Source of the DNA: an uncultured Methanomicrobiales archaeon
GTDB taxonomy: Archaea; Halobacteriota; Methanomicrobia; Methanomicrobiales; Methanospirillaceae
Assembly (NCBI GenBank): GCA_963758915.1
Contig: CAVWXH010000006.1
Location: 1 to 64,000 of the forward strand
Length of the DNA stretch: 64,000 nt
Direction of reading: 5' to 3'
A program made the position numbers and the translations under genes. The notes under the pieces are model-generated. The model made no database searches, was not told the DNA's origin, and worked only from the letters and a program-made list of their open reading frames with translations. Each line of letters starts with the position of its first letter. Position 1 is the stretch's first letter. This document shows positions 9,802 to 52,582 of this stretch, piece after piece.

Positions 9802-9806
9802 ATGCT

Positions 9807-11814
9807 ATGGTGCTGAATAGCGAAATAAGACCTGACCCGGATCTCCTCCTCGCCCGCGTCCTCAATGAAGAGCGGCAAAAGAAGAGGGGCAGGCTCAAGA
9901 TCTTTCTTGGTTACGTGGCCGGGGTTGGCAAGACCTACGAAATGCTGAATGCAGCACACCTCAGGAAAAAAGAGGGGGTCAATGTCCAGATCGGGTATAT
10001 TGAGACGCATGGAAGGGTCGAAACTGAAGCACTCCTTGCTGGCCTGACCCTTATTCCCAGAAAAATAGTCGAGTACCGGGATGTAAGACTGGAAGAGATG
10101 GACCTCGATGCAATCATTGCTGCCCGGCCAGACCTCGTGCTCGTTGACGAACTGGCACACACCAATGCACCCGGTTCACGTCACCTCAAGCGTTACCAGG
10201 ATGTGGAAGAGCTGCTCGATGCCGGGATAGATGTGTATACCACCCTCAATGTGCAGCACCTCGAGAGCCTTAATGATGTCATCGCCCAGATAACCAACAT
10301 AGTCGTCAGGGAAACAATACCTGACGGGGTAATCGATGAAGCGGCCGAGATCGAACTTGTCGATCTTGCACCACCCGAACTCTTACAACGGCTGCGTGAA
10401 GGGAAAGTCTATGTCCCGGAAATGGCTGCCCGGGCCATTGAGCAGTTCTTCAACGAGGGAAACCTGTATGCTCTCCGTGAAATCGCCCTCCGCCGTGCTG
10501 CAGAGCGGGTTGATGACCAGATGCTCTCATATATGCAGACCCGTTCTATCCCCGGCCCATGGCATGCCGGGGAGAGGATACTGGTCTGTGTGGGCCCGAG
10601 CCCGCTTTCAGAACGTCTAGTCCGGACAGCAAGGAGGCAGGCAGACCGGATTAATGCGAACTGGGACGCAATCTATGTCGAGACCCCGTCCCATCACCGG
10701 CTCTCAAAAAATGCGAAGGAGCAGGTCTGGCGTAACCTCCAGCTCGCTGAAAAACTTGGTGCAACGACTGCAACTATATTCGGGATAAGTGTAGCCGATA
10801 CCGCGATCGAGTATGCCAAAAAGCATAACATCACGCGAATTATCATCGGGAAAACACTTCGCCCCCGGTGGCAGGAATTTGTTTTCGGTTCAGTCGTGGA
10901 CACGCTTATCCACAACAGCGGGACGATCGATGTCTACGTAATCAGCGGCCAGGATAAAGGGCCGGAAAAGCCCGTTGAAATGGAACCCCTGTTGCCGACG
11001 AATCCGCCGAAAGGATATGCGGGGTGTATAGGGCTTATTATTTTGACCACCCTCGTAGGATGGCTGCTCAAGCCGTACATATCCCAGACAAACCTCCTGA
11101 TGTTCTACCTGCTTGGTTGTTGTCCTGACGGCGTACCTCTGGGGGCTCCGCCCTGCGATAGTGAGTGCAATTCTCGGGGTACTTGCTTTTGACTTCTTCT
11201 TTGTATCTCCCTATCTGAGTTTTCGGATCTCTGATACAGAGTATATCATCACGTTTATCGGTTTGATAGTGGTCGCAGGGGTGATCAGCCTGCTCGTTGC
11301 CCGGGCACGGGAACATGCATTTGCAGCACAGGTCCGCGAAAAAGAGACAAGCACCCTTTTTGCATTATCACAGGATCTTACTATTGCTCCGGATATCAGC
11401 ACGGTAATCAACACCGTCACAAAACATATCGGTGAGATATTCAACTGGGAATGTATTTTCCTCATCTTTGAAAACGGCTCACTTGTCCAGAATCCTGGGA
11501 GTCCGGGGCTTATGCTTGATGCTGACGAAATTGCGGTGGCAACATGGGCATTTTCACACGATACCGTTACGGGCTACGATACCGATACCCTCCACTCATC
11601 CCGGTTGAGATATATTCCGCTTCGTACAAACCGGGGAATACTTGGGATTCTCGGGGTAAAACCTGACGAGCCGGACGGTGTAATAAACCCCGAGCAGTCA
11701 AGACTCCTGGCAGCATTCGCCAATCAGGTAGCCCTTGCAATCGAACGTGTGAATGTCACTAATGTCGATGATGACACGACAGAACGAAATAAAATGCGGG
11801 AATTCTCATCATGA
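9807..11814 (+). CDS. kdpD: KdpD-type sensor lacking a histidine kinase domain (KdpD-N, Usp, DUF4118 TMs, GAF; apparent +1 frameshift at ~11116)
   Basis: RGRLKIFLGYVAGVGKTYEML, VDELAHTN, TLNVQHLESLND, a Usp-like region, LAFDFFFV.PY, and a GAF ending AFANQVALAIER, then a stop. Confidence 0.9.
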
Positions 11815-37349: not shown

Positions 37350-39236
37350 TTATACGGGCCTCAGTTTAATTATATCCCCCTGGTTGTACCGTTTCAGCAT
37401 CTCCTGCGCAATGGTACTGTTCTTTCCAAGGTGGATCTCCCCTGTCTCATTTACCGTCGCCGTGAAAAGGTACTCTTTTCCCGCGAATACGTCAACAATT
37501 TTACCGGCCTGCTCGGGAGAAATGATTGCCAGCTGCTTTTTATCGACACGGATTTTTATCCCTCCGCCCAGCTGGAGTTCCTCTTCCACTGGTGCCTGTG
37601 CAGGCTGGGGTTTCTCGGCCTCGCTTCTTGGCCTGATATCTATCCCGATACCTACCTTGTTTACAATTGCCGCAATATTTTTCCCACCTTTTCCGATCGC
37701 GGCAGGGACGTCCTTATCATCGATATAGACGACTGCTTTCGTATCTGAAAGCATCCTTACATCGACGGTACCATCAGAGTACCGTCCTATTTCCCTCTGT
37801 ATTTCCCGTTCCGTGATCTTCCAGCCAGAGTTCTCCTCCTCCTTCACCTCTTCCTGCACTTTCAACGATGGTTCCGCCATGGCCTGCTGGGAAGGTGCCG
37901 AAATAACGATGGTCTCTCCCTCATATTTGAATATCTCAAATGCAAGATCTCCGGTTTCGTAGTTGCGGACAATTGTGACCGGACGGAGGTGCGTCTCGCC
38001 AGCCATTCCTTCAGGCACTTTTATGGTAAATTCAACATCGTAGACCTTCAGGATTTCACCCTCATCTACAAAGATAATGGTATTGACTATTTGTGGAAGG
38101 ACGCCAAAATCCACCCTGTCTGAAAAGCGCTGTAGTGCATCTTGTGCGCCGATTGCATGGACGACCCCGACCATGCCGATACCTGCCAGGCGCATATCGG
38201 CGAACACCCGGAAGTCCTCATGCTTCCTGAGTTCGTCAAACACGACATAATCAGGCCGTACAAGCATCAGAATATCCGCAGTGTTTTCCATGCTCCCTTC
38301 AAGCAGGGTATATTGCGTAATATGGTCAGGAACCTGTAATTCTCTTGGTGCCTCCATTGTTTTCACAACAAAGCCGTTATCTGCAAGATATGTTGCCACA
38401 CTCTGGGCCAGTGTAGTCTTTCCTGCTCCGGGAGGCCCGGCGATTAAAAGGCCTCTCTTCTTTCCCGTGATCCTGTTTTTGATTACATTTGATTTCCGGT
38501 AATTATCAAGGACCATATCCACGATTGGCCGGACTGCCGTAATCTCCATCCCGTCACTAAACGGTCTCCGGGCGATCGCAATCCTCATGGAGCCAATCTG
38601 TACAACCGTAATCCCGCGCTTTTCAACCTCGATAAATCCGTCCGGGTCCCGTTTTGCCCGTTCAAGTATCTCCTGTGCAAGCGATTTTAGCTCATAATCA
38701 GAGGAAGGCTGATCCCGGATCCTGACGAGTTTCATCTCGTTGATTGTTCCTTTCTTTGCTACCGGAGGTACGCGCTCCTTCAGGTACACCGCAATGGTAT
38801 GCTCATCAAAGAACTGATCAATTCCAAGGGGTGTAAAATCCCCTATCTGGGGTTTTAAGTAGATAACATCAAGGCCTTTAGCCTTGGCTACTTCAGCCTG
38901 GACAATATCGCTCGTAATGAACCGTGCCGTATGTTCTATTGCAACATTCCGTATGAGTGCATCAATCTCGCCTCCGCTGGCGAGCTTGACCTGTTCAAGA
39001 GTAGGTCGCACACCGACGAATTTAAGTTCAATTGTCCCTTCTTCAGCCAGTTTGCAAAGCGCCTGAAGTTCCGTGAGGCCTGAAAATCCTATCTCCCGTC
39101 CCTGGTTTGCCTGTGCCTCAAGTTCTGCGATTACTGCTTCTGGTATAATTATTGTCGCGCCATTATATTCACCGGTTTTTATCATTGAGGTGATGCGACC
39201 ATCTATGACAACACTAGTATCTGGTACTAATTTCAA
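37350..39236 (-). CDS. PIN-domain ATPase (PINA; PIN + ATPase + KH)
   Basis: VPDTSVVIDG PIN start, GPPGAGKTT, DELR, KH motif AAIGKGGKNI. Confidence 0.92.
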   Translation of the reverse strand: MKLVPDTSVVIDGRITSMIKTGEYNGATIIIPEAVIAELEAQANQGREIGFSGLTELQALCKLAEEGTIELKFVGVRPTLEQVKLASGGEIDALIRNVAIEHTARFITSDIVQAEVAKAKGLDVIYLKPQIGDFTPLGIDQFFDEHTIAVYLKERVPPVAKKGTINEMKLVRIRDQPSSDYELKSLAQEILERAKRDPDGFIEVEKRGITVVQIGSMRIAIARRPFSDGMEITAVRPIVDMVLDNYRKSNVIKNRITGKKRGLLIAGPPGAGKTTLAQSVATYLADNGFVVKTMEAPRELQVPDHITQYTLLEGSMENTADILMLVRPDYVVFDELRKHEDFRVFADMRLAGIGMVGVVHAIGAQDALQRFSDRVDFGVLPQIVNTIIFVDEGEILKVYDVEFTIKVPEGMAGETHLRPVTIVRNYETGDLAFEIFKYEGETIVISAPSQQAMAEPSLKVQEEVKEEENSGWKITEREIQREIGRYSDGTVDVRMLSDTKAVVYIDDKDVPAAIGKGGKNIAAIVNKVGIGIDIRPRSEAEKPQPAQAPVEEELQLGGGIKIRVDKKQLAIISPEQAGKIVDVFAGKEYLFTATVNETGEIHLGKNSTIAQEMLKRYNQGDIIKLRPV

Positions 39237-39634: not shown

Positions 39635-40738
39635 TTAGATACCTCCAAAGAAATTAAGGCATATAGTAAGGATATCTCCGATAAAAAGTCCAAATATTAA
39701 TCCAGCGGTAATGGGGACAATAAATGGGACGCCATAGGATATCCAGACCTTTCCTGCCTGTTTATACAATGAAATTTCATGGGAATATTGTTCCGGATGT
39801 AATCTGAGGTCTTTTGTATAAATCCGCTTCCCCCCCTTGACGAGAGATCCCAGGGCCTCCCCAAGTTTCAAAAATCTCCGTTCGATTGTGCCACCAGTCA
39901 CACTGATCTCTTCAATGATATATCCGAATGAATTCTGTACCTTGTCTCCATCAACCGGGTACCCAAGGAAAAGATAGAGTAAGGGCGCCCTGTTTCCCCG
40001 GTACAGGTTCACCATAAAGAGTGCAATCGGGGCAATGAGGTTGAATATCACTGCATTGACCAGAACGGTGAACGGAAAAAATGCAAGGGGCGGGTATCCG
40101 GCAAGTGGTGTGAAGGGAAAGAACGGGATCGTCAGCGATATGAACATCAGTGCCCATGCATCAGCCCCGCCAAAAAGATTGAGAAATGCAAATAAGTAAA
40201 AAAGGAGGCAGAAAAATGCGATCATCCCGAGGTACGCGTATGAAATCTGTGTCGCGACTGCTATGGCATAGTAAAACCATGAAAATGCAGCAATCAGGAA
40301 ATAGATTATCGGCCAGGTATCGGTGAAACGGTTCTCTCTACCCCGGAACTCGAGCAATGTCGCGCAGGAAAAAATCAACACTGCGGCCATGGACATAAAA
40401 AAAATGCTTATCATCTCATTATAGAGAAAATAAAAGCCTGTGCAGATCTGGAGGGCAATTACTATTATCGGCCACACCAGCTGTTTTGGAGTCCTGATAT
40501 CACAGTTATTAAAATATGCAAGTAAGAGGATGGCACTGGTGATTCCCGCGTATCCTGCGAGGAGAACAATTCCATTATTAAAAGAGATGAGTGCCAGTCC
40601 CGCCCCGGGTATACCGATTAGAAGGAGTGGCACCCAGGTAATAAACGGGACCCTCCGATCAATAATATCAAGATATGATGCATAGCAGAGTGTTATAATA
40701 ACTGCGATGGCACCGATAACAAGCGGAACTATGATCAT
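39635..40738 (-). CDS. Prepilin/preflagellin peptidase (A24, PibD/FlaK type)
   Basis: [11 protein letters not shown] and FGGADA catalytic Asp motifs. C-terminal [16 protein letters not shown]. Confidence 0.9.
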
Positions 40739-41065
40739 GGTCGTCACGTGCAATATCTGTATCAGGACTTTTTAATAATGGCGTTTTTAAGAAAATGACG
40801 GCCTCGGTCCTCTCCTCCTTGTTATGCTTGCATTACAAGGATTGCACTGCCTGGTATTGTGTTGCCCAATCCCCTATCATTTTCGTAAGCAGGCTACCTG
40901 ATTACATGATGACGGGGAGATAAATCAATATAATATGCTAATATAGTACGGAAATACAGAAAGGATCCTACACAAAGAACCGGTAACGGGTATCAGCAGT
41001 CCCATGTCACTGCCCGAATATTCTCTACCTAACAGCTATAACCATTATGAGGGAGTGAATTCTGA

Positions 41066-41680
41066 ATGGAAATCAATGAATTTCTCAACGAGCAGATGAA
41101 TGCGACCACATCAGAGTACTCTTCTAAATTAAACGATCTAAAAAAATATGTAACCGATGGAAAAAAAAGTGGGATCGGAGTTGCCGATATCGGATTTGGT
41201 AAGCTGTATTTACTGTTTAAAAAAGGCGAACCAGAAGGTGCAGTAGAGATAGAAAAAAATGGAATCCTTCTTGGAGATAAGGCCATATACCTTTTAAAAG
41301 GTAATGAGGTGTTCTCTTTTCATCCGGTTGAGCTGGATGTAATCGAATCCTATATTCTCTTGTGTCGTATCTTTGACCGGAGCCATCTTACCAGTAATAT
41401 GTCTATGGCAATGCCAACCATTGAAAGAAGAAATGAAGGCACAGGTTCGTTTACCGTAATAATCCTGAAAGGAAAGGTACCCCAGTCTGGTATTCATGTA
41501 TCCATCAGGAAACAGGGACGGGTGATCGGTAGCGATGTTACCACGCAAGAGGGGAAGGCATATTTCAAAGTAATCTTCGGTGAATATGACTGTGTGGTAA
41601 TGGACCGTGATCGGAAAATAAGGATATTTCCTGTCACGGTGCGTTCAGGTGGACGCGAAGAGACCATTGAGCTTGGTTAA
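41066..41680 (+). CDS. Hypothetical protein: DUF2226/PATAN-like N-domain plus beta-sandwich C-domain
   Basis: KKSGIG...LYLLFKKGEP.GAV......LLGDKAI resembles the 45201 and 47562 N-domains. The C-terminal T..EGKAYF....GEYD.VV is prealbumin-like. Confidence 0.65.
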   Translation: MEINEFLNEQMNATTSEYSSKLNDLKKYVTDGKKSGIGVADIGFGKLYLLFKKGEPEGAVEIEKNGILLGDKAIYLLKGNEVFSFHPVELDVIESYILLCRIFDRSHLTSNMSMAMPTIERRNEGTGSFTVIILKGKVPQSGIHVSIRKQGRVIGSDVTTQEGKAYFKVIFGEYDCVVMDRDRKIRIFPVTVRSGGREETIELG

Positions 41681-42026
41681 CCGATTGATATAAAATTGGG
41701 CAGGCTCTTCCTGCAAGGTGGCATAGGATTATCCGTTTCCAGATTGTCATTTGATATTTTCATTTAAAAAAGGTCTATCATCGTTTGATTGGAATTTCAA
41801 TATTAACCAATATCTGCCTTTATTTTTAAAATTCATCAATATTTCATCTATTATCTGCCGACCCCATATGGTATTGGTTAAATAAATGAAATCAAGACGT
41901 ATATCCCATGGTGCTGTATCTTGAAGGCAAAAAGGAGAAATTCGTGTCCTGCCTGATTGTCCGAGTGATTTTTCCATACTTATTTTAACAATCCCGGTTC
42001 AGGAGAACACACAGTATGGAACAACC

Positions 42027-43253
42027 ATGACTACAATATTAGAACATGCCAGAGAGGGAATCTGCAGCCCCCAGATGAATGCGGTCGCTTACAACGAAGG
42101 GGTAAACCCGGAAGTCCTTCGTGCTCAAATCATATCCGGAAAAGTTGTAATAATGCACAGGGGGGAAGTTGCGGTGGGAATCGGTAAGGGTTTGCGGACA
42201 AAAATAAACGTTAACCTTGGTTCATCGACAAACCGTGCCCGGTTGTCTGATGAGATAGAAAAAGCGCGAATCGCTGAAAAATATGGTGCAGATACAATCA
42301 GTGACCTCTCAATGGGTGGCAATATTAACAAGATCAGGAAAGAAATTTTTAACCAGACAAAACTTCCTGTCACCACAGTTCCAATTTATCAGGCCGTTGC
42401 GGAATCCGGTCTTAAGGACCTGACTACTGAAGATATTCTCACTACTGTCCGCATGCAGGCACGGCAGGGGATAAGTTCGATCGTGATCCATTGTGTAAAT
42501 GAACGGATGCTAAGTTCGCTACGGCAGAAAAAACGAATTCTTGGCATGGTCTCAAAAGGGGGAGCTATCACAAGTTCTTTTATGCAGATGAATAATTGTG
42601 AAAACCCGTTTATCGGACATTTTTCTGAAATACTAACAATAATGAAAGAATACGATATCGTCCTTTCGCTGGGGAATGCCGCTCGAAGCGGTTGCATCCA
42701 TGATCTCCAGGATGAGACGCAACGTGAGGAGTTTCGACAAAATCTCGAGCTTGCCAACCTCGCACATGCTGAAGGTGTACAGGTCATTATCGAGGGGGCG
42801 GGGGGACATATCCGGGCAGACAGGATTAAAGAGTACATTGAACAGTACAAAAATAACTCCCCATATCCCCTCTTTGTTGCAGGACCACTTCCCACGGACA
42901 TAGCATTCGGGTATGACCATATTGCGGGTTGTGTAGGTGCGAGTATTGCGAGTTCTGCGGGTGCGGATTATCTCTGTGCCATCACACCTGCAGAACATCT
43001 TGGGCTGCCAGGTCTGCAGGAGGTAAAAGAAGGTTTAATCGCATTCAGGATTGCAGCGCATATCGGGGATTCAATGAAGTATGGGAAAGATGAAAAAGAC
43101 CGGGTAATTGCAGAAAAAAGATCAGTACTCGACCTGGAAGGTCAGATGTGCCTTGCACTGGACCGTGAACGTGCGGAAATGTTGTCTTCACGTATTTCTG
43201 AATGTACAATGTGCGGGGATTTCTGTGCAATTAAACTGATGAAAATGTTTTGA
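42027..43253 (+). CDS. ThiC-family radical SAM enzyme (ThiC or a Bza-type paralogue)
   Basis: GLRTKINVNLGSS, GADTISDLSMGG, TDIAFGYDHI, ITPAEHLGLP, C-terminal CTMCGDFC. Confidence 0.88.
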   Translation: MTTILEHAREGICSPQMNAVAYNEGVNPEVLRAQIISGKVVIMHRGEVAVGIGKGLRTKINVNLGSSTNRARLSDEIEKARIAEKYGADTISDLSMGGNINKIRKEIFNQTKLPVTTVPIYQAVAESGLKDLTTEDILTTVRMQARQGISSIVIHCVNERMLSSLRQKKRILGMVSKGGAITSSFMQMNNCENPFIGHFSEILTIMKEYDIVLSLGNAARSGCIHDLQDETQREEFRQNLELANLAHAEGVQVIIEGAGGHIRADRIKEYIEQYKNNSPYPLFVAGPLPTDIAFGYDHIAGCVGASIASSAGADYLCAITPAEHLGLPGLQEVKEGLIAFRIAAHIGDSMKYGKDEKDRVIAEKRSVLDLEGQMCLALDRERAEMLSSRISECTMCGDFCAIKLMKMF

Positions 43254-43542
43254 AAAGAAGCCAAGCGCCGGATAATTTACATGCCGTCAGCTTTGTTGAA
43301 ACACACATGAACGTGGCATTTTCATGGTCCAGCTGTGAACTTCCTGTTCATGTGTGTTTCAACAGAGTCTTGCAGTTTAATTCATCCGAACTGAAAAAAA
43401 AGCATGGGGTTTTTAATAAAAAAAAGAATGCAAATATAAAACATCAAACCAGTAATATAAAATTATTACTATTTATTTTTAATATTTATCCTATTAAAAA
43501 GAAAGATATTTTGAGTGTTTCATGGAAATCCAAAAAAAAGAT

Positions 43543-43740
43543 TTACATCTGGTGTCTTTTATATTCTTCGGCAGTCCTTGAAATTTCATCAAGTTCGCTT
43601 TCAGAGAAGTCAATGGCAAACCCGGCTTTATCATGTTCGTCGAGAAGTTGCTGGATCCTCCTTGACATGACATACATGAAAAAACATTGTACTATAATAA
43701 TCAACCCGAACAGAATAATCAGAGTTTCCTCAATGCTCAT
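43543..43740 (-). CDS. Small single-pass membrane protein coupled to minD
   Basis: N-terminal TM and acidic helical tail. ATGA overlap with the minD stop. Confidence 0.7.
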   Translation of the reverse strand: MSIEETLIILFGLIIIVQCFFMYVMSRRIQQLLDEHDKAGFAIDFSESELDEISRTAEEYKRHQM

Positions 43741-44522
43741 CGTTTCCCTCTAAACAGGACCTTTGCAAAGCGGTCTACAAACCCGTCTTTTGCGGCCTGA
43801 GGGCTTTCCTTAAAAGGCATACCTGCCATATTTGCGGCGATTCTCCTTAAGGCGACGGATGCACCGGAGTCCGGGTATTTTATCACCACAGGTGTTTTAA
43901 ATGATGCGGCCTTCCTGATATTCGGGTCTTCCGGAATAGTTCCGATCACTTTTACTCCAAGGACTTTCTCCATCTTCTGGCTGACAAAATCAGTTTTTTC
44001 AACCCCCGCACGGTTAAGGATGGCTCCCATTACATGACCCCCTACAACTTCGGTCAGGATTTTTGTTTTCAGGGCATCCACAATTGAAGAAAGTTCCGGA
44101 TTAACTACAAGAATAACTTCATCCGCAATTGCAAGGGGGATAACCCCGTCCCTGCTTATACCCGCTGGTGCATCTATCAGCAGGTAATCACAAAGATTGA
44201 CCAACTCCTTAAGTGCGTCCTTCAGTTTTTCCGGGTCAGCCTGCTGGAATCCCTGCAGGGAAATCCCGCTGGGAACAACTTTCAAACCAGCAGGACCTTC
44301 GTAAATTGCATCTTTGATGTTTGCCTTACCAGCTAACACTTCGTGGAGTGTGATCGGAACATCCTCAAGGCCAAGGACAAGGCCAAGATTCGCCATTCCG
44401 ATATCAGCATCCATTATAAATGTCTCTTTCCCCAATTGGGCAAGGCATGTCCCGAGGTTCACAGTCACCGTGGTCTTTCCTGTTCCACCTTTTCCGGAAG
44501 CCAACGTGTAGACTCTGACCAT
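43737..44522 (-). CDS. minD: MinD/ParA-family ATPase
   Basis: SGKGGTGKTT, DADIGMANL, IDAPAG. C-terminal amphipathic GFVDRFAKVLF. Confidence 0.93.
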   Translation of the reverse strand: MVRVYTLASGKGGTGKTTVTVNLGTCLAQLGKETFIMDADIGMANLGLVLGLEDVPITLHEVLAGKANIKDAIYEGPAGLKVVPSGISLQGFQQADPEKLKDALKELVNLCDYLLIDAPAGISRDGVIPLAIADEVILVVNPELSSIVDALKTKILTEVVGGHVMGAILNRAGVEKTDFVSQKMEKVLGVKVIGTIPEDPNIRKAASFKTPVVIKYPDSGASVALRRIAANMAGMPFKESPQAAKDGFVDRFAKVLFRGKR

Positions 44523-44594
44523 TAAACACCTTCACAAGAGTTGCTTAATGTAAATTTATATGCTGGTAATTAAATCCTCTCCCTCTTAGGTACA

Positions 44595-45158
44595 TTATAT
44601 CCACCAGTTCATGATTTTTTCAGTATCCTTCTTGATACTTTCCAATGAACTGTCTGTTATCACATGGTCGGATCGTATGATTCCGATTATCGATGATCCC
44701 TTATGGGTGATATCAAATATTCTCATCCCCGGAACAGAAGGGACCTCATCTGGTTTTAAGGCCTGGCCATAGTGTGCTGCATCATCCTGCCCACTTTCCC
44801 CGGTTGTTGCAATCATCAGACCGTCTGTTGTTGACAAGGTTATTGCACCGAGATGGTATTTCGATGCAAGCGCATGGAGATTTCTTGAAATATCCCCGAG
44901 GTCCACAAGTTGTACCTTTTCATCCTGTTGTTTTTTTTCTGCAATGTCCCCATCTTTGATTTCTGCATTATCAGGAAACTGAGTAATAATCTCTGCTGGT
45001 GGTTTAATGTCCCAGATTTTAGCTGGCTCTTTTCTTCCCGCTCTGTGTTTTACCTGGTAAATCTTCATAAATAGCAGGATAATGATAATTGCTGCTATTG
45101 CTATGATCAGGATGATGACCGGAATGAATGATATCTGTCCTTGTAATATCGATTGCAT
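44595..45158 (-). CDS. Membrane-anchored protein with a C-terminal Roadblock/profilin-like domain
   Basis: N-terminal TM, linker, then LGAITLSTTDGLMIATT...DDAAHY (the Roadblock 'DG' beta-hairpin pattern). Confidence 0.6.
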   Translation of the reverse strand: MQSILQGQISFIPVIILIIAIAAIIIILLFMKIYQVKHRAGRKEPAKIWDIKPPAEIITQFPDNAEIKDGDIAEKKQQDEKVQLVDLGDISRNLHALASKYHLGAITLSTTDGLMIATTGESGQDDAAHYGQALKPDEVPSVPGMRIFDITHKGSSIIGIIRSDHVITDSSLESIKKDTEKIMNWWI

Positions 45159-45200
45159 GGTGTCTTCCTGCTTTAGCGCTTGTTTTTCTGGAATTTATTC

Positions 45201-45890
45201 TTAATCTTCTCTCTTATCTATCAGGTGATCAAGGTCCAGGTGCTCGATGGTGACCTTACAGTTCTCCCGGATTTTTTTGGTCATTTCATCAATGTCCATA
45301 TTATCGAGAGCCTCCAGGTCTCGGCCAATACTCGTCCCATCTTCTGCATGCCCATTTTCATTTGCCGGTTGCTCACCGGGAGATTGTGCAGTCCCGGAGG
45401 TTGAGACCTGCTCTGCAGCAGGTTTTTCGTTTAATACAGTTTCTGTTCCGTCGTGAAGACCTTTGTTTCCCTGTGGCTCAAAACGTACTTCAGGGACTTG
45501 ATCTCCGGGAATGCCTTCCTTTTTCCTGATATCCGGGGTGGTCACCCCCGTTCTGACCTGCCTGGCAGGGCCCCTCCTGACAAAGCTCGGGAGTGCTGCA
45601 TGCGGGTTAAATTCCCGCGCAAGATCGAGTTGAACTGGGTTTAATGTTGTAAGTCCCGCATCGACCTTCATGTCCAGCATCTTTTGCATTTTCTGCCAGG
45701 CATGCTCCCCTTCAAGTTTGCCGTAATCTGCAATGATATAAATCCCGGAATTGAGTACCAGGGTGCAGGTCTCTATCCCGGAAGTGATCGTGCAATAGCC
45801 GGTGAACCTGGTTTTTTCTATCTCATCAAGGAGTGAACGAAATAGTATTCCTTTCTTTATGGAATGGAATGTGCCCCTTGGGAGTTTCAT
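45201..45890 (-). CDS. DUF2226/PATAN-like protein with a disordered linker and acidic C-terminal helices
   Basis: MKLPRG...LLDEIEKTRFTGYC.I......LVLNSG.YI.ADY..LEGEHA...QLDLAREFN. Confidence 0.75.
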   Translation of the reverse strand: MKLPRGTFHSIKKGILFRSLLDEIEKTRFTGYCTITSGIETCTLVLNSGIYIIADYGKLEGEHAWQKMQKMLDMKVDAGLTTLNPVQLDLAREFNPHAALPSFVRRGPARQVRTGVTTPDIRKKEGIPGDQVPEVRFEPQGNKGLHDGTETVLNEKPAAEQVSTSGTAQSPGEQPANENGHAEDGTSIGRDLEALDNMDIDEMTKKIRENCKVTIEHLDLDHLIDKRED

Positions 45891-46018
45891 CAATAAGAGA
45901 TATACAACGGCATATTACATAGTCCTTTTTAACACAAGGTGTTTTAGGGGTTTTAATCACGGTGAAAAGAAAGAATTATCCAAGTACCCTTTTATCCCCA
46001 GATTGATGATTAAATAAC

Positions 46019-47110
46019 GGCTGGTATGAAAAACTCCGGCAAAACAATCTGAAAGACCACCTTTTTCATGCCCATCTATGAGCCAGAGGCTCATAGCACG
46101 CTCTGTAGAAATCATATCTTTGAGCAAAAATTGACCTGATCGACCGAAAAAGCTAAGATACAGTGCCTCCTTACCTTGTTATGCTACTAACCCATAAGGA
46201 GGTAAAATAATGTCATCAAACCGGTGTATTCAGGTTTGTTGAATTATCGTCAGGTTTGATCAAAGATACGAGGATTCCACTTTATTCCTCAAAATATTCA
46301 AAACGGACTTACAATCAGCATCAATTGCTCATCCTCCTGCTTTTAAAAGTATATCTCTCTGAAAATTATCGGGATTCTGTCGAACTCCTGGAAACCATGG
46401 AGACATTAAAAGAGACAATCAACCTTAAAGAAATACCTCATTTTACGACGCTTCAGAAGTTCTGCCAAAGTATACGATCAATTACCTTCACCGTTTTAAT
46501 GAACCGGCTTATCAAAATGTTTTACGACTGGGGAGAACGAATTGCCTGCACCGCTATCGATTCATCCGGGTTCACAAGCTCATATGCCAGCCATTACTAC
46601 TCCATCAGAACAGGAAATATCAGGAAAAGATTTCTTAAAACCTCAATCTCTATTGATAGCGACCGACAGATAATCACCGGTCTGAAAATAACCCAACATC
46701 ACGTACACGATGTCCTCCACGCTGAAAAACTCCTGAAACAATGCCATAGAACCAGAAAATCTGAACTCTATGTTATGGACAAGGGATACGATTCAGAGGA
46801 GGTTCATCACCAGATCCGGGATACTATGGACTCAATCTCTCTTATCCCGATACGTGAAAGAAAAAGAAAGCGGATTTCCGGTCATTACAGAAGAAAAATA
46901 ATGATTTCATTCGAGTCTGATCTATACCATCAACGAAACAAGGTTGAAACCGTGTTCTCCGTATTGAAAAGAAAGTTCGCTGAAGCCCTTAAGGCGCGGA
47001 AATACCGACTTCAGGTTAAGGAAATAAAAATCAAAGCGATCCTCTATAACATCCCAAGAGCGATGACCTATTTTTTTATTCTTATTGTAATTGAGGAATT
47101 CTACAGAGCC
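46019..47110 (+). mobile_element. IS5-like insertion sequence including an 80-bp cap; 8-bp TSD TAAATAAC
   Basis: Inner TIRs cGCTCTGTAGAAATC (46099) and GAATTCTACAGAGCC (47110). TAAATAAC at 46011-46018 and 47111-47118. Confidence 0.9.
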
Positions 47111-47113
47111 TAA
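46210..47113 (+). CDS. IS5-like DDE transposase (apparent +1 frameshift at ~46230)
   Basis: [53 protein letters not shown] before the ATG at 46210. Confidence 0.92.
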
Positions 47114-47209
47114 ATAACCTTGAATTAAAATAATGTTAGGAAACATATTTATCATCGTATACCAGAAATTCAGTTTAAATAGAGATGGTTTATATCGGGG
47201 AGATTCGGA

Positions 47210-47557
47210 ATGTTAAAGCAGATACTGGGTGAGTTCCTTAAGGTGGAGGGTGTTTCCGCAGCAGTCGTCGTTGGAAGAGATGGATTTGTGATAGAGAGTG
47301 CAATATCCGGAAAAATCGATATTGATGCATTAGGTGCAATGGCATCCACCGGCATGGGTACTTCGGAAGCCATGGGGAATGAGCTTGGTAAAGGGAACCT
47401 CGATCAGATGCTTGTAGAGCTTGAAAAAGGACCAATCATTTTATCACCTCTTTCCTCAGATGAATTAATCGCAATAGTGGCAGATTCTACTGCCAATGTA
47501 GGAAGGATCAGGTACGAGTTGAAGAAGAACAAAGAACGACTGATGGCTGCCCTATAA
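47210..47557 (+). CDS. Roadblock/LC7 (MglB-like) protein
   Basis: L..F.KVEGV.AAVVVGRDGFVIE...LGAMAS...LG.G.L.QMLVELEKG.I...ANVGRIR. Confidence 0.92.
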   Translation: MLKQILGEFLKVEGVSAAVVVGRDGFVIESAISGKIDIDALGAMASTGMGTSEAMGNELGKGNLDQMLVELEKGPIILSPLSSDELIAIVADSTANVGRIRYELKKNKERLMAAL

Positions 47558-47561
47558 TAAC

Positions 47562-48230
47562 ATGAATCTGCCGGAAGGGACCCATCTCGGGTATATCAAT
47601 AATCCGCTTCAGGATACGGATGTGCAGCGGATAATAGGCCATATAGGGCTGATAAAAACTACTGCTCAACAGGGTGAAGGGATCATCCTGATTGACAAGG
47701 GTAAAATAATTGCCGCTTCATTTACGTCAGGGGATAAACTCTATTATGGTAACGGAGCGCTTGAAGTTATCAATGCGACCTCCCCGGAGAAGATGGAGCT
47801 TAACAGTTATACTGCAGATGAATACCAGGTTGCAGTGGAAATATGCCGGAATGAAAATCTTCTGCTCCAGGATGAAACCCATATACCCACAATCCCCGAT
47901 CTTCTCGATGAGAGCGTACTGAGAAAAATTCTGGTCCAGCCGGGAGTGATCGCCGTATCGGCATTTTCAGAGGGGTTTTCAGTCCAGTCCCTTGGTAAAG
48001 CAGACTTTGACCAGGTTGCAGCGATGGCTGAAGACCTGCTCAGGGCAGGAATAAAAATTGCAAAGGATATGAAAATTGGCCTGATCGACCAGATCATACT
48101 TGAAACAAATTCCGGGAAAATAATTATTGCTCCGTATGGTGACCTGTTCCTCTGTGTTTTTACCGGGCCTGATGCAAACATAGGCCTGATACGGGTGGTC
48201 CTGAAGAGTATCCAGAGCGATGTCAGGTGA
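47562..48230 (+). CDS. DUF2226/PATAN-like plus Roadblock/LC7 fusion protein
   Basis: N-domain MNLPEG...GIILIDKGKIIAA......YYGNGAL. C-domain PGVIAVSAFSEGF...VAAMAEDL...DQIILET..GKIIIAP...ANIGLIR. Confidence 0.85.
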   Translation: MNLPEGTHLGYINNPLQDTDVQRIIGHIGLIKTTAQQGEGIILIDKGKIIAASFTSGDKLYYGNGALEVINATSPEKMELNSYTADEYQVAVEICRNENLLLQDETHIPTIPDLLDESVLRKILVQPGVIAVSAFSEGFSVQSLGKADFDQVAAMAEDLLRAGIKIAKDMKIGLIDQIILETNSGKIIIAPYGDLFLCVFTGPDANIGLIRVVLKSIQSDVR

Positions 48231-48347
48231 GATGGTGTGCTTTTGGTGGATCGGTTCTTCTTCTCCGGAGGGGTAATTATTTGAAGGTAGTGAAGGAAGA
48301 TCCTTTTAATAATATAGCTCAGCGAATATCATCAATGCTACACAACA

Positions 48348-50636
48348 ATGAATGATGATGAACTTGAGGAACAGGGGTTCCTGAAAAAAATTCTGGCGGC
48401 GAAGAAAGGTACTGGTAAGGCAGACCCCCCTTTAAAACCCGATGCAGAGACGAAGACGAATGATGTGACAGACATCGATGCTTTAATGAAACGTATCGGG
48501 GTCCAGAATGTCATTACTCCCCCCTCAGTGCCATCACCCCCGGCACCATCCGGTCAGGTGGGTGCGGGAAAGGAAATCCCAGATGCAACAAGAATAGCTG
48601 TACCAGTATCCTCCCCTCCCAAACAACCCCCCTCGTCCGATTCCCCGCCCATTATGCAGTCTCCTCCCGCAGAACAACCTATTACGCACCTCGTAAACAG
48701 TGGACCTGCCCCGGTGACACGAGCTGCTGCAGCCAGGCCCGCGACTCCGGATACCCCGGTACCGGCTGTGAACGCTGCAAAGACGATGTGGTCTGATGAT
48801 ATTTCCGAACAGGATGAAAAAATTGTCAGCTTCGACCAGATCAAGGGAATTAGTGGACTAATTCTCCCGAAAGGTGTGACGTTTGAGATAGACGAGGTAC
48901 AGCTGAAGGGCCGCGCCTCGCGATTTACCATGGCAGACGGTAGTGTTCCCGAGGAGATCGATAAGATATGGCAGGCCGGACTCCCGTCAGGTGGCCTCTC
49001 CAGCATACAAATTGACCATGATGGGGATGGTTCTGCAGCTGCTGAAAAGGGTGGTTTCCGTAATAAATTCAACCTGTTCAAACTCATCAGGCATGAGACC
49101 GTGGAATACAACCCGAAAATCCACGGCCCGCTCATAGATCTTGTAATGAAGCCAAGAGCTGGTGTTGAGGAGCTGGAGTTTTATCCTGTCAATGAGCCTT
49201 ACGCCTATATCCGGGTCGTATATGACAATTCCACGCATGAGTACACCTATACCGTGCTTGAACCTGTCCTTTCGCCAGCGGAACTGGACCTTTTCTCAGA
49301 ATTAAAAGAACGGATCTTTGAAAGACTTGATGTTAATTCAAGGGATATTGTTCCCGAATTTGCAAGAAATACGCTTAAAAAAGTGACGGATGACATCATT
49401 GCAGATTATGGTCTTACCCTGACTCCAGTGCAGAGGGCAAAAATTCTCTATAATATGGAGAAGGAATTCCTCGGCCAGGGCCTGATTGACCCCATTATGC
49501 ATGACAAATATATTGAGGATATCTCATGTGATGGTGTAAATTCGTCAATATTTGTCTACCATGCCCGCTATGAGTCAATGAAATCCAACGTGATATTCAC
49601 TAACGCAGAAGACCTTGACTCATTTGTGACAAAACTCGCCCAGAGGGCAGGGAAATATATCTCGATTGCTGAACCTATGCTCGATGCAACAATGAGCGAC
49701 GGCTCCCGTATTCAGATGACGCTGGGCCAGGAAGTAACGGCACATGGGTCTACCTTCACTATCCGTAAATTCAGGGAAGAACCAATCACCCCTACAGACC
49801 TGATCGAATGGCATACTTTTTCTCCCCTTTCAATCGCCTTTCTCTGGCTTGCGGTGGAAACGGGGAAATCCCTGCTCCTCGCCGGTGGGACTGCATCTGG
49901 AAAGACAACAGCGCTGAACGCGATTGCGTTGTTCATCCCTCCACTTGCCAAGATTGTCACCCTTGAGGATACAAGGGAATTAAAACTCCCGCATCCGAAC
50001 TGGATCCCAAGTATTACAAGGGCATCGTTCGACTCTGAAGGCAAGGGGGAGATCGATATGTATGAACTCCTTCGGGCCGCACTCCGTCAGCGACCGGAGT
50101 ACATCCTCGTTGGTGAAGTACGTGGAAAAGAGGCCCAGACCCTCTTCCAGGCGATGAGTACCGGGCACGTGACCTATTCAACAATACATGCAGATTCGGT
50201 TGCGAGTGTAGTCCACAGGATTGAAAACCCCCCGCTTGATGTCCCGAGAAATATGCTGTCCGCTCTCGACCTTGTCTGTGTCCAGGTTCAGGCACGGGTT
50301 GGTGGCCAGAGGATACGGCGCAATAAACAGATCATCGAGATCCTCGATATTGATCCACGCACGAATGAGTTGATCACGAACGAAGTGTTCAAATGGAGAC
50401 AGTCAACAGATGAAATTACCTATTCAGGTAAATCCTTCATATTAGAAGAGATCATGGAAGAGAGGGGATGGAATGAGGAGCGGATCAGGGAAGAACTCAA
50501 GAGAAGGCAGGAAGTCCTCGAGTGGATGCGCATCAAGAAAATCCGGCATTTCAGGGATGTCTCCAATATCCTTGTTTCGTATTTCAGGGATTCGGAAGCT
50601 GTGATACAAAAAGTAAGGGCTGAGCTGTATGAATAG
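48348..50636 (+). CDS. Type II/IV secretion (type IV pilus assembly) ATPase with a long Pro-rich N-terminal extension
   Basis: IEDISCDG, TFTIRKF, GGTASGKTT, LEDTREL, ALRQRPEYILVGEVRG, TGH...STIHA. Confidence 0.95.
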   Translation: MNDDELEEQGFLKKILAAKKGTGKADPPLKPDAETKTNDVTDIDALMKRIGVQNVITPPSVPSPPAPSGQVGAGKEIPDATRIAVPVSSPPKQPPSSDSPPIMQSPPAEQPITHLVNSGPAPVTRAAAARPATPDTPVPAVNAAKTMWSDDISEQDEKIVSFDQIKGISGLILPKGVTFEIDEVQLKGRASRFTMADGSVPEEIDKIWQAGLPSGGLSSIQIDHDGDGSAAAEKGGFRNKFNLFKLIRHETVEYNPKIHGPLIDLVMKPRAGVEELEFYPVNEPYAYIRVVYDNSTHEYTYTVLEPVLSPAELDLFSELKERIFERLDVNSRDIVPEFARNTLKKVTDDIIADYGLTLTPVQRAKILYNMEKEFLGQGLIDPIMHDKYIEDISCDGVNSSIFVYHARYESMKSNVIFTNAEDLDSFVTKLAQRAGKYISIAEPMLDATMSDGSRIQMTLGQEVTAHGSTFTIRKFREEPITPTDLIEWHTFSPLSIAFLWLAVETGKSLLLAGGTASGKTTALNAIALFIPPLAKIVTLEDTRELKLPHPNWIPSITRASFDSEGKGEIDMYELLRAALRQRPEYILVGEVRGKEAQTLFQAMSTGHVTYSTIHADSVASVVHRIENPPLDVPRNMLSALDLVCVQVQARVGGQRIRRNKQIIEILDIDPRTNELITNEVFKWRQSTDEITYSGKSFILEEIMEERGWNEERIREELKRRQEVLEWMRIKKIRHFRDVSNILVSYFRDSEAVIQKVRAELYE

Positions 50637-51552
50637 TTACGAACGCTTCTGCTTCAACCTTCTCGGAAAAAGAGTAAAAACCAGGCGTGAAAAATATTCG
50701 GAATTACGAAAAGATCTGCTTTCCGCCCGAATACAAAATCCCTTCGAGGTATATCTCTCAACAGCTATTGTGACCTCAGTCCTTGTAGGGCTTCTTGCAG
50801 CAGTTGGCATCGGAACGATCACCTATTTTTTTCAATTGACAAAACTCGTCACCTATCGTGGAGCTGTCCCGGATGCACTCGTACCTGTTGCGAATTATAG
50901 TCTTTTCCTCGGGACCGTTGCGGTAACTATTATATCTCTCCTGGTTTTTGGAGGGCTGACATATCTGATCTACAACCTCTATCCTGCAATGATCGCCGGA
51001 AACAGGCGAAGGAATATCGACGCAACCCTTCCATACGCGATTAATTACATCACAGCGATGTCTACAGCGGGTATTCCCCCAGCTGAGATTTTCCGCCAGC
51101 TGGCAGACAGTAAAATATACGGCGAAAGCTCTGTAGAAGCCCGGTATATTGTGCGGGAAATTGACATGTTCGGAAAAGACCTCATTGATGCCCTTAGAAT
51201 TACTTCTGTTTCCACGCCAAGCATGAGGATGAAGGAATTTATTCAGGGTGCGATGGGAAGCATCTCGAGTGGCAGTAACCTTACCGTTTATTTCCGGACA
51301 AAAGCCGAGCAGTATTCGGTCGAAAACCGCCAGACCCAGAAACTCTTCCTTGATACCCTTGGTCTTATTGCGGAGTCGTATGTGACGGCGATGGTCGCAG
51401 GGCCTCTTTTCCTGATTATTCTCCAGTCAATTATGTCGGTCATCGGAAACAATGCGAATCCTATCTTTCTCTTTGTGATCATCTACATGATGATCCCGTT
51501 GGGGAGTATCATGTTCGTCATTATGATCAGTGCGATGACTCCGGAGGGTTGA
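50629..51552 (+). CDS. Type II secretion F-family (TadB/TadC-like) pilus platform protein
   Basis: IDATLPYAINYITAMSTAG, YGE.S.E, GKDLIDAL...TPS. TM segments. Confidence 0.9.
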   Translation: MNSYERFCFNLLGKRVKTRREKYSELRKDLLSARIQNPFEVYLSTAIVTSVLVGLLAAVGIGTITYFFQLTKLVTYRGAVPDALVPVANYSLFLGTVAVTIISLLVFGGLTYLIYNLYPAMIAGNRRRNIDATLPYAINYITAMSTAGIPPAEIFRQLADSKIYGESSVEARYIVREIDMFGKDLIDALRITSVSTPSMRMKEFIQGAMGSISSGSNLTVYFRTKAEQYSVENRQTQKLFLDTLGLIAESYVTAMVAGPLFLIILQSIMSVIGNNANPIFLFVIIYMMIPLGSIMFVIMISAMTPEG

Positions 51553-51553
51553 A

Positions 51554-52582
51554 ATGAGCTGGAAAGATAAAATTCCGGGGTTTGGAGGAAAAAAAGGCCT
51601 TTCTGAAGATATACCTGGAAAACGTGTCAGTTATTCTGCTGATGCGGAACGTGAAATTGAAGAAAAGCTCGAATATGATCGCGCTCACAGGATGGGGTTT
51701 GGCCGGTTCATCAGGCATCCCCTGAAGGTGCTTATTGAAAAGCCGATTAATATTCTCATCGTGTGCTTACCCGTTTCCCTGCTGTTCTTCCTCATCGGTA
51801 CCGCGACCATGATCCGGCAGTATGGCCTGCCAGTGATGTTCACGACAACAATTATTGATGATATCGCGGTCATTTCAATCCTTATTGCCATCGGACCCCT
51901 GGCAATTCTCTACACAAGGGAATCAAAACGAATTAACAATCTCGAGGAAGCGCTCCCCAATTTCTTCCGTGATCTCGCTGGTATGAACGACAGCGGTATG
52001 ACGCTCCCCAACGCGGTCCACCTCGTTTCTGCTGGTGAATATAGTACGCTTACACCCTACATTCGTAAGATGGACAGCGAAATGTCCTGGAATGTGCCAT
52101 TTGTCGACGCAATGTACCGTTTCGGCCAACGACTGCGTACCCCCCTTGCAGACAGGAGTGTCGACCTGATTGCGAAGGCCAGCAGGGCGGGAGGAGATGC
52201 CAGCGAAGTGCTCCGGGCCGCGGCAAATGACACCTATGAATTTGTGAAGCTGAAAACCGAACGGAACAACAACATGATGATCTATGTCGTTATTGTGCTT
52301 GTATCGTTCCTGGTGTTCCTGTTTGTTATTTTTATACTGGTCACGACATTTCTTACCACGATGGCAACCGCAGCCCAGGCAGGGGGGCCAGGCGGCCCAC
52401 AGTTTATAAAAAACCTGAATCTTTTCTTTTACAAGAGGTTATTTGCCCATGCCGCCATGATCCAGGGAATATTTTCAGGGCTCGTCGCCGGGCAGATGGG
52501 TGAAGGCAGCGCAATTGCAGGCCTCAAATATTCGGCAATCATGTTGCTGATTGCATGGATTGCGTTCCGGTTCTTTGTATAA
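51554..52582 (+). CDS. Type II secretion F-family (TadC-like) pilus platform protein
   Basis: LEEALPNFFRDLA....SGMTL, GGD..EVL, QGIFSGLVAGQMGEG...AGLKY. Confidence 0.9.
   Translation: MSWKDKIPGFGGKKGLSEDIPGKRVSYSADAEREIEEKLEYDRAHRMGFGRFIRHPLKVLIEKPINILIVCLPVSLLFFLIGTATMIRQYGLPVMFTTTIIDDIAVISILIAIGPLAILYTRESKRINNLEEALPNFFRDLAGMNDSGMTLPNAVHLVSAGEYSTLTPYIRKMDSEMSWNVPFVDAMYRFGQRLRTPLADRSVDLIAKASRAGGDASEVLRAAANDTYEFVKLKTERNNNMMIYVVIVLVSFLVFLFVIFILVTTFLTTMATAAQAGGPGGPQFIKNLNLFFYKRLFAHAAMIQGIFSGLVAGQMGEGSAIAGLKYSAIMLLIAWIAFRFFV

Follow-up and report, generated by a model that had tools for sequence, protein, structure and literature searches.

A MinD-centred gene module with Roadblock and DUF2226/PATAN-like proteins in a PilB3-type pilus locus of Methanomicrobiales: a candidate system for placing or gating a pilus machine

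Bacterial TadZ/CpaE of Tad pili and FlhG/FleN of flagella are MinD/ParA-type ATPases that place surface machines, and Roadblock proteins are commonly taken to regulate small GTPases. In archaea, MinD paralogues are numerous, whereas, to our knowledge, neither MinC nor MinE occurs. The locus considered here lies in a 64,000-nucleotide stretch of DNA (the window; contig CAVWXH010000006.1 of assembly GCA_963758915.1, positions 1 to 64,000) from an uncultured archaeon of the order Methanomicrobiales. It consists of two units: a pilus core, made up of a prepilin peptidase, the protein p204, a secretion ATPase and the platform proteins TadC1 and TadC2, and a module, made up of p230, TM187, MinD, a membrane microprotein and the Roadblock proteins Robl115 and NRobl222. 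Three of the proteins (p204, p230, and NRobl222) begin with a DUF2226/PATAN-like domain, called the N-domain below. The module is read here as a MinD-centred accessory system that places or gates a PilB3-type pilus machine, a reading to which we give a probability of roughly one half.

FleN/MinD (arCOG00589) and roadblock (arCOG02603) have been linked to archaeal type IV pilus (T4P) loci, and for clade-2 pili the involvement of a FleN/MinD ATPase is expected (Makarova et al., 2016; PMC4858521). A sequence-only reading of the window, which proposed a cell-polarity system wired to a T4P machine, had cautioned that such linkage may have been noted in surveys, and Makarova et al. bear this out. 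A 2026 survey of archaeal type IV filament (T4F) machineries repeats the point about MinD; its main text contains neither "roadblock" nor "Methanomicrob". In the accessible text of these surveys, what is in print is only that MinD and Roadblock genes are linked to pilus loci of archaea. Literature searches returned no description of, or experiment on, the N-domain in these loci, the membrane-anchored Roadblock protein, the set of p230, TM187, and microprotein, the nested gene arrangements, or the tail motif of the ATPase, some of which genes may be listed in the supplementary tables of both surveys. No paper on DUF2226 was found, a search on PATAN, Roadblock, and archaea gave nothing on this module, and among the papers listed for Roadblock and MinD in archaea Makarova et al. 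is the sole relevant one.

In Synechocystis, an isolated PATAN domain is enough to bind PilB1 and the PilC N-terminus and to reverse the polarity of the pili (Han et al., bioRxiv 10.1101/2021.06.11.447907). The cyanobacterial PATAN regulators PixE and PixG resemble the proteins of the window in having a small N-terminal domain from the same superfamily neighbourhood, which is here encoded together with a pilus ATPase and platform. In the cyanobacterial regulators this domain is joined to a CheY receiver, whereas in the window it is fused to a Roadblock domain, to a beta-sandwich, or to a linker and helix; the window proteins also fail the DUF4388 model and have no chemosensory input encoded in cis. 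In haloarchaea, MinD4 of Haloferax, which has a membrane-targeting sequence, positions archaella and must couple to a patterning system that is unknown (10.1101/2020.04.03.021790). TadZ/CpaE, FlhG/FleN, and haloarchaeal MinD4 have in common with the MinD of the locus a deviant Walker A motif and an amphipathic C-terminal tail, and in the window this ATPase is encoded beside a Tad/FlaI-type ATPase and TadC; in contrast to TadZ/CpaE, it is a canonical archaeal MinD (TIGR01969) that scores 34.3 bits against the CpaE model TIGR03815, below the cut-off of 154.45, and it is accompanied by Roadblock and DUF2226-like partners, which those systems lack.

Roadblock/LC7 dimer-type proteins encoded beside motility or pilus genes, with PATAN neighbours, are also found in the MglA/MglB/MglC system of Myxococcus, archaeal Roadblock-GTPase pairs, and the conservons of Streptomyces; the present system differs in that neither the locus nor the genome yielded a small GTPase and in that one Roadblock protein is tethered by its own transmembrane (TM) helix. 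The clade-2/PilB3-C3 pilus of Haloferax volcanii likewise has an ATPase with a PilB3_C match and an ATPase/TadC locus without pilins, which are provided in trans, whereas here the platform is divided between two genes and the ATPase has a long disordered N-terminal tail with a conserved motif; the N-domain module was not found in 26 of 33 families of the phylum sample. Relative to what is in print, the locus would be a variant that combines MinD-type placement of surface machines with PATAN-type control of pilus motors.

The pilus core (peptidase, p204, ATPase, and split platform) is that of a PilB3-type archaeal T4P assembly machine whose pilins would be encoded elsewhere. Its machinery trio of secretion ATPase, platform, and class III signal peptidase is present, each over its Pfam cut-off. 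The ATPase scores 412.8 bits against the archaellum FlaI equivalog NF058587, below the cut-off of 550, and the peptidase matches NCBIfam FlaK_Arch below cut-off (E 4.3e-10). The platform protein is split, because two T2SSF genes match the N- and C-terminal halves of the ArlJ/FlaJ models: TadC1 covers positions 35-249 of the 555 in the ArlJ profile and TadC2 positions 272-541. Genome-wide, five Pilin_N matches exceed the cut-off, on contigs C3, C16, and C9. A second FlaI-like ATPase, 45% identical to that of the locus (G000:C16:349169-359959), lies about 8 kb from two Pilin_N genes and looks like a separate pilus locus with pilins in cis.

The evidence that ties the module to this core comes from gene order. 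Twenty loci were fetched from across the order and 80 further loci were picked by similarity to NRobl222, a choice biased towards family f1; the gene set recurs in the 20 fetched loci and in the 64 of the 80 further loci that were long enough to judge. Three arrangements are found. In arrangement A (family f1, as in the window), a leftward peptidase gene and a rightward p204 gene are followed by leftward genes for the microprotein (in some loci), MinD, TM187, and p230 and then, divergently, by rightward genes for Robl115, NRobl222, the ATPase, TadC1, and TadC2. In arrangement B (families f2 and f3), the leftward peptidase gene is followed by three genes, among them those for the small and large subunits of a NiFe-hydrogenase, and then by Robl115, NRobl222, p230, MinD, p204, ATPase, TadC1, and TadC2 in a single direction. 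In arrangement C (families f4 and f5), p230, TM187, MinD, in some loci the microprotein, the same hydrogenase genes, Robl115, and NRobl222 follow one another in one direction, and the leftward peptidase gene with rightward p204, ATPase, TadC1, and TadC2 stands elsewhere in the genome. The fetched loci comprise eight of arrangement A, one that is cut, six of B, three of C, and two with the Robl115-NRobl222 pair only; of the further loci, a script binned 48 as A, 3 as B, and 13 as C, the remaining 16 being too short for a judgement (L062, binned as C, has TadC1 and TadC2 downstream and reads better as A).

The module thus occupies two places in the cluster, between p204 and the ATPase in arrangement A and between the peptidase and p204 in arrangement B, and the insertion of one module into one cluster at two different places is the strongest argument for a functional tie. 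The protein p204 is the constant companion of the ATPase-TadC cluster: it was detected in 85 of 101 genomes from the order, and its gene immediately precedes that of the ATPase in genomes that lack the module as well as in arrangements B and C. In relatives it is also the neighbour of the peptidase, from which it is separated in arrangement B by the three genes and the genes of the module. Across a phylum sample of 301 genomes from 33 families, the N-domain was found in 68 genomes. Within the order it occurs in families f1 (17/19), f2 (2/2), f3 (5/5), f4 (6/7), and f5 (11/12) and in none of eight genomes of f6; outside the order it occurs in f14 (9/10), f8 (15/52), f20 (1/2), and f28 (1/2), all other sampled families giving none. 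The distribution is nested: all 41 genomes of the order that have the N-domain also have p204, which occurs in addition in 6 of the 12 genomes of the order that lack the N-domain.

The ATPase carries a feature whose distribution is similar to that of the module. Residues from about 1 to 150 form a proline-rich, variable, disordered tail with the conserved short motif DIDALMKRIG at residues 44-53. Two short basic amphipathic motifs are seen in this tail (window 48348-48800), the other being EEQGFLKKILAAKK at residues 7-20. By a loose regular expression, 36 of 45 orthologous ATPase tails have one copy of the tail motif or more. A hidden Markov model (HMM) built from the arrangement-A tails of other genomes is positive in 14 of 19 module-bearing genomes (7/9 with arrangement A, 3/6 with B, and 4/4 with C) and in none of the five module-less genomes, in which the tails are also shorter. 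That the motif tracks the module is a lead and not a result, given a small sample of related genomes.

Short amphipathic peptides in disordered tails are the means by which MinE, ParB, and FliM/FliY address MinD/ParA-type ATPases and by which the dynein intermediate chain addresses LC7 dimers, and the tail motif is a candidate docking site of this kind. The idea that a single ligand recurs as the C-terminal helix of p230 and as the tail motif of the ATPase was tried and dropped: an HMM of the p230 helix misses the ATPase, the tail-motif HMM does not have p230 among its best 15 matches, and a pattern unique in the genome to p230 and the ATPase had been written after both were seen and is circular. 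The tail-motif HMM also gives a weak match (LNNLLKKLGM, E 0.16) in the Cache/V4R protein of locus L118, in the same genome.

As judged from their profiles, p204, p230, and NRobl222 share an N-terminal domain of about 100 residues that is visible at the profile level only. Pairwise BLASTP among the three gives no significant match. Profiles of their orthologues compared with hhalign join the N-domains of p230 and NRobl222 (95.9%, E 5.6e-9) and those of NRobl222 and p204 (93.4%, E 2.4e-7); the direct comparison of p230 and p204 reaches 13.5% only, and control comparisons of the N-domains with Roadblock profiles stay below 3%. In p230 and NRobl222 the domain begins at residue 1 with an invariant MxLPxG, and the predicted model of NRobl222 gives it the topology beta, short alpha, four beta, alpha, beta, alpha. 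The profiles of p230 and p204 found nothing significant among the sequences of solved structures. The C-terminal domain of p204 has weak matches to NOMO-like beta-sandwiches (E 0.019 and E 0.026). A search for homologues of the N-domain returned close relatives only, annotated as roadblock/LC7 or as "regulator of Ras-like GTPase activity".

Against Pfam DUF2226 (PF09987), no window protein matches at E<=0.1 and no protein of the genome at E<=10, and one of 19 orthologues of NRobl222 matches at E 0.032. Against Pfam DUF4388/PATAN (PF14332; cut-off 25 bits), no window protein matches, and sub-threshold matches occur in 5 of 14 orthologues of p230 (best E 0.0023) and 2 of 19 orthologues of NRobl222. 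A joint profile of the N-domain (A5), made from 32 sequences and searched against 1.84 billion representatives, retrieved 497 proteins at E<=1e-3, of which 264 at E<=1e-10. Among the best 150 matches the commonest architecture is that of p230, an N-domain with a C-terminal helix (73 proteins); 29 have an N-domain and a Roadblock domain, 29 an N-domain only, 15 two N-domains and a helix, and 4 other architectures. DUF4388 is found at E<=0.01 in 23 of these 150, and among 54 retrieved proteins that were scanned singly its top score is 24.1 bits. The A5 profile also retrieves two true DUF2226 proteins, P0086 (E 9.2e-19, in three stretches; 88.8 bits with PF09987 against a cut-off of 22) and P0143 (E 1.5e-16; 47.5 bits), which an HMM of the domain resolves into three N-domains and into two copies plus one p204-type N-domain, respectively. 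Because true DUF2226 proteins are retrieved and DUF4388 is matched close to threshold, the N-domain is the unit that DUF2226 proteins repeat, with PATAN as a close neighbour, and the label "DUF2226/PATAN-like" is valid at the superfamily level. Cluster members of ten A5 matches are mostly annotated as "hypothetical protein" from metagenomes. One metagenomic protein, P0094, fuses the N-domain to a TIR domain (TIR_2, E 2.8e-9), and the domain is therefore used in a defence-like or signalling context as well.

The principal rival to a pilus-dedicated module is a general system for positioning or signalling that serves another cargo or several of them, its adjacency to the pilus genes being inherited gene order or the mark of one cargo among many; we regard this as a serious possibility, though a less probable one. 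The following evidence speaks for it and weighs against placement or gating of the pilus machine. In arrangement C the second cluster stood elsewhere in all four genomes checked (ATPase 74-79% identical), and in the f5 genomes L017 and L027 the Robl115-NRobl222 pair stands alone in a 20-kb region. Three loci of f14 have Robl115, NRobl222, a 370-residue N-domain protein, and MinD (with the microprotein in one) and no ATPase nearby; p204 was found in none of three f14 genomes, and the relatives of the ATPase there, 51-53% identical, are about a megabase away. Conversely, five genomes (three of g18 and one each of g8 and g12) keep peptidase, p204, ATPase, TadC1, and TadC2 with no module found. 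Module-less pilus clusters and the f14 loci therefore show that the core can exist without the module and the module without the core. The NiFe-hydrogenase genes are a competing neighbour, since in arrangements B and C the Robl115-NRobl222 pair directly follows them; in L018:6666-9556 and L016:6334-9210, the genes for a 187-residue protein and for the small and large hydrogenase subunits end 4-14 bases before Robl115 on the same strand, so that hydrogenase and Roadblock genes meet at a conserved junction.

Further points on the same side come from the genome and from other archaea. Paralogous pairs of a Roadblock and an N-domain-Roadblock protein are encoded beside HAMP and receiver proteins, and a further Roadblock gene stands beside Cache/V4R and receiver proteins; these paralogues point to general signalling. 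No Pilin_N match was found on this contig, which leaves the locus without a pilin in cis. The effects of MinD4 in haloarchaea concern archaella and chemoreceptor arrays rather than pili (10.1101/2020.04.03.021790). The name "DUF2226/PATAN-like", given to these proteins by the sequence-only reading, stands at the superfamily level and fails for the window proteins at the level of the Pfam DUF2226 and DUF4388 models. Apart from this weighing, two limits apply: the organisms are hard to grow and to manipulate genetically, and the linkage to the pilus extends to part of the order only.

Against a general module stand the two independent gene orders in which it intervenes between the ATPase and either p204 or the peptidase, one order being a same-direction cluster, the absence of any N-domain-bearing genome of the order without p204 (0/41), and the restriction of the ATPase tail motif to genomes that have the module. 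Synteny of the MinD and Roadblock genes with the ATPase-TadC genes, which was to be looked for in other genomes to check the claim that the module is wired to a pilus, holds for families f1, f2, and f3, in two gene orders; the wiring is lineage-specific, with the module far from the ATPase in f4, f5, and f14. Placement or gating of the pilus machine remains the reading developed below.

With 331.5 bits against TIGR01969 minD_arch (cut-off 201.75), MinD belongs fully to the archaeal MinD subfamily. An alignment of 18 sequences shows no variation at the signature lysine K11 or in the deviant Walker A motif GKGGTGKT, and the C-terminal tail conserved in it, GF[IV]DRFAKxLF, agrees with the amphipathic helix that had been proposed for MinD. 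Orthologues of the microprotein were found by tblastn in 4 of 20 and 14 of 80 loci, and it also stands behind MinD in one f14 locus (E 7e-6).

Both soluble Roadblock proteins exceed the cut-off of 23 bits for Pfam Robl_LC7 (PF03259), Robl115 with 60.5 bits and NRobl222 with 28.6 bits. No gene of the module is better conserved than Robl115 (71-99% identity within the order), which is present in all 80 further loci, which had been selected by the neighbouring NRobl222. The AlphaFold2 (AF2) model of NRobl222 has a predicted local distance difference test (pLDDT) score of 83.5; its C-terminal domain superimposes on 9jue_D, a chain of an Asgard Roadblock homodimer, with Z 16.9 and a root-mean-square deviation (rmsd) of 1.8 over 110 residues (VIA), and for the whole model the match lists of Foldseek and VIA are filled by the Roadblock domain. 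For TM187, the AF2 model (pLDDT 80.0) shows a membrane helix at residues 12-39, an unstructured linker, and a C-terminal domain of topology alpha-beta-beta-alpha-beta-beta-alpha. Its best Foldseek match is MglB 6hjm (E 4.1e-4); in VIA the best match of the C-terminal domain is 3kye_A (Z 11.4, rmsd 2.8, 98 residues), and the best 37 matches contain nothing but entries for Roadblock, Ragulator, or MglB. In the predicted model, therefore, the C-terminal domain of TM187 has the Roadblock fold, and it would face the cytoplasm because basic residues follow the membrane helix. At the sequence level a match is lacking: the window protein has none with Robl_LC7, which is found in 3 of 31 orthologues (best E 0.0027), and hhalign against a Roadblock profile gives 2.5%. 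TM187 is a putative membrane-anchored Roadblock-like protein by its predicted fold and not by its sequence. The TM187 orthologue of a genus relative (L032:8162-8743, genome G004) has three in-frame stops, from gene decay or assembly errors.

Elsewhere in the genome, a paralogous set at L117 (G000:C16) 7203-9821 encodes a HAMP protein, a Roadblock protein of 115 residues, an N-domain-Roadblock protein of 323 residues, and a regulator with receiver and MetOD2 domains, with a weak Pilin_N match about 6 kb away (C16:208913-209143). A third Roadblock gene, at L118 (G000:C3) 3742-9240, is followed by genes for a 524-residue Cache/V4R protein and a 965-residue protein with a receiver and a coiled coil.

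The Roadblock proteins of Myxococcus had been offered as the analogy for the locus, with Robl115 called MglB-like. On that model, the Roadblock proteins would act as GTPase-activating protein or guanine nucleotide exchange factor for a Ras-like GTPase that marks the active pole, in the manner of MglA/MglB with or without MglC. The Roadblock fold itself, the presence of MglB and MglC among the structural matches, and the linkage of PATAN and MglB genes in bacteria (PMC4316618) fit such a switch. However, Robl115 scores 27.3 bits against the MglB equivalog model NF052242, whose cut-off is 200, and searches for GTPases of the Ras, Arf, and Roc families, positive in 13-14 of 14 control genomes, gave no match over cut-off in the 94%-complete genome. 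None of the mapped loci has a GTPase gene, and the only NTPases within reach of the module are MinD and the pilus ATPase. Neither the MglB label nor the Myxococcus mechanism is supported by these results, and a switch of this type is very improbable here. The Dip system (PMC13228585) was also considered as the identity of the module and rejected, as its components are a GTPase of another kind together with DUF2073 and zinc-ribbon proteins.

With MinD placed at the centre of the module, placement or gating of the pilus machine could proceed as follows. The ATP-bound dimer of MinD would bind the membrane through its amphipathic C-terminal tail, and the membrane-anchored TM187, Robl115, and NRobl222 would pair as Roadblock dimers to form a membrane platform. 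The DUF2226/PATAN-like domains of p230, NRobl222, and p204 may be the adaptor or output domains that touch the pilus motor, by analogy with cyanobacterial PATAN, p204 as the constant neighbour of the ATPase being the putative motor-side adaptor and the motif in the disordered tail of the ATPase the putative docking site. The module would thereby set the place, the timing, or the occurrence of assembly of the pilus machine, and MinD rather than a Ras-like GTPase would be the nucleotide switch. A more specific version is speculative and, in our estimate, rather unlikely: a GTPase-free Roadblock/PATAN-like switch around MinD in which the Roadblock dimers and p230 would be the missing partners of MinD, standing in for MinE or a landmark, the ATPase would be captured through D[IL]DxL[ML]K[KR]IG, and assembly would be placed or licensed by the nucleotide state of MinD.

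The features of the locus are given in Table 1; gene calls and families come from an open reading frame (ORF) listing and from Pfam and NCBIfam scans of the window proteins.

Table 1. Features of the pilus core, the module, and the inserted elements in the window
Feature	Position	Strand	Basis or domains
Prepilin/preflagellin-type A24 peptidase, 372 residues, polytopic	39635-40753	-	Arc_PepC_II 73.5 bits, cut-off 29.9
p204, predicted cytoplasmic	41066-41680	+	DUF2226/PATAN-like N-domain ~1-115 and C-terminal beta-sandwich-like domain
thiC, outside the module	42027-43253	+	Pfam ThiC_Rad_SAM E 7.2e-144
Single-pass membrane microprotein, 65 residues	43543-43740	-	ORF and hydrophobic stretch
Archaeal MinD ATPase, 261 residues	43737-44522	-	TIGR01969
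TM187: N-terminal membrane helix, variable linker, putative cytoplasmic Roadblock-fold domain ~85-187	44595-45158	-	Predicted model
p230: DUF2226/PATAN-like N-domain 1-105, disordered variable linker, conserved C-terminal helix ~190-228	45201-45893	-	Orthologue alignment
IS5-family insertion sequence, outside the module	~46019-47110	+	Transposase ORF 46256-47113
Robl115, single-domain Roadblock/LC7	47210-47557	+	Robl_LC7 60.5 bits
NRobl222: DUF2226/PATAN-like N-domain 1-100 fused to Roadblock domain 112-222	47562-48230	+	Robl_LC7 28.6 bits
FlaI/PilB3-like secretion ATPase, 762 residues	48348-50636	+	T2SSE 120.7 bits; PilB3_C E 4.5e-8
TadC1, N-terminal half of TadC/FlaJ-type platform	50629-51552	+	T2SSF 54 bits
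TadC2, C-terminal half of TadC/FlaJ-type platform	51554-52582	+	T2SSF 58.6 bits

The two divergent operons that had been described are present, p230, TM187, MinD, and the microprotein in leftward order and Robl115, NRobl222, ATPase, TadC1, and TadC2 in rightward order, and the domain inventory given for them (MinD with an amphipathic tail, Roadblock proteins, the shared DUF2226/PATAN-like domain, T4P ATPase, and split platform) agrees with the scans. The third DUF2226-like gene and the prepilin peptidase are likewise present at the left, with thiC intervening between p204 and the leftward operon. The stop of MinD and the start of the microprotein overlap by 4 bases, ATPase and TadC1 overlap by 8 bases, and Robl115 and NRobl222 are 4 bases apart, and this close spacing suggests that the members of each pair are probably co-translated. 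In the metatranscriptomes of two studies there are contigs that correspond, with 0-3 differences, to parts of MinD, TM187, Robl115, NRobl222, and the ATPase; as these parts are short and RNA libraries can carry DNA, the contigs hint only weakly at transcription of the genes in sediments.

The sequence-only reading overlooked an IS5 element of 1.09 kb between the divergent operons. Its transposase scores 203 bits against NCBIfam transpos_IS5_2 (NF033579; cut-off 140). Its boundaries were set by comparison with the relatives L002 and L003, which have an empty site at this position in flanks that are 94-96% identical; an 8-bp direct repeat, TAAATAAC, borders the element at both ends, and the genome has one full copy only. 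The element is a recent single insertion. It leaves 125 bp 5' of p230 and 99 bp 5' of Robl115, each with an A/T-rich box-like sequence, and both operon promoters would have survived. A short frame that opens with ATG and closes with TGA at about 46241 stands before that of the transposase, whose alignment with the family model begins at profile position 33; the transposase may therefore be cut at its N-terminus. In genome L083 an IS5-type transposase match, in opposite orientation, also lies just 5' of the Robl115 gene. The thiC gene between p204 and the microprotein gene is a further insertion, limited to the source genome and the closest of its relatives (seen at 1 of 80 related loci) and not present in the genus relatives L030-L032.

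The reading of ATPase and TadC as a conjugative or DNA-transfer pilus of a mobile element, whose transfer the module would regulate, has in its favour sub-cut-off matches of VirB11/TrbB-type models to the ATPase domain and the insertion sequence within the locus, but is scarcely credible, and the word "conjugative" is best dropped, since the locus is chromosomal with flanks of topoisomerase VI, hisI, leuS, and RNA polymerase genes, its position is conserved across the order, no relaxase, coupling protein, transfer genes, or excision boundaries were seen in window region 30000-56000, the insertion sequence is recent and lacking in near-identical relatives, and the best matches of the ATPase are of FlaI and PilB3 types. 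Farther left, two genes from the peptidase and with hisI between, a 628-residue protein with PIN, ATPase, and KH-type domains (37350-39236) appears PINA-like by eye only and unrelated to the module.

For the biology of these methanogens, the locus offers candidate partners for an archaeal MinD, namely p230, TM187, Robl115, NRobl222, and the microprotein, and their gene order links them to one defined cargo, the motor of a PilB3-type pilus, which carries a candidate docking motif. If the module does place or gate this motor, Roadblock proteins would work with an ATPase of the MinD class, and PATAN-like control of T4P motors would extend from cyanobacteria to methanogens.

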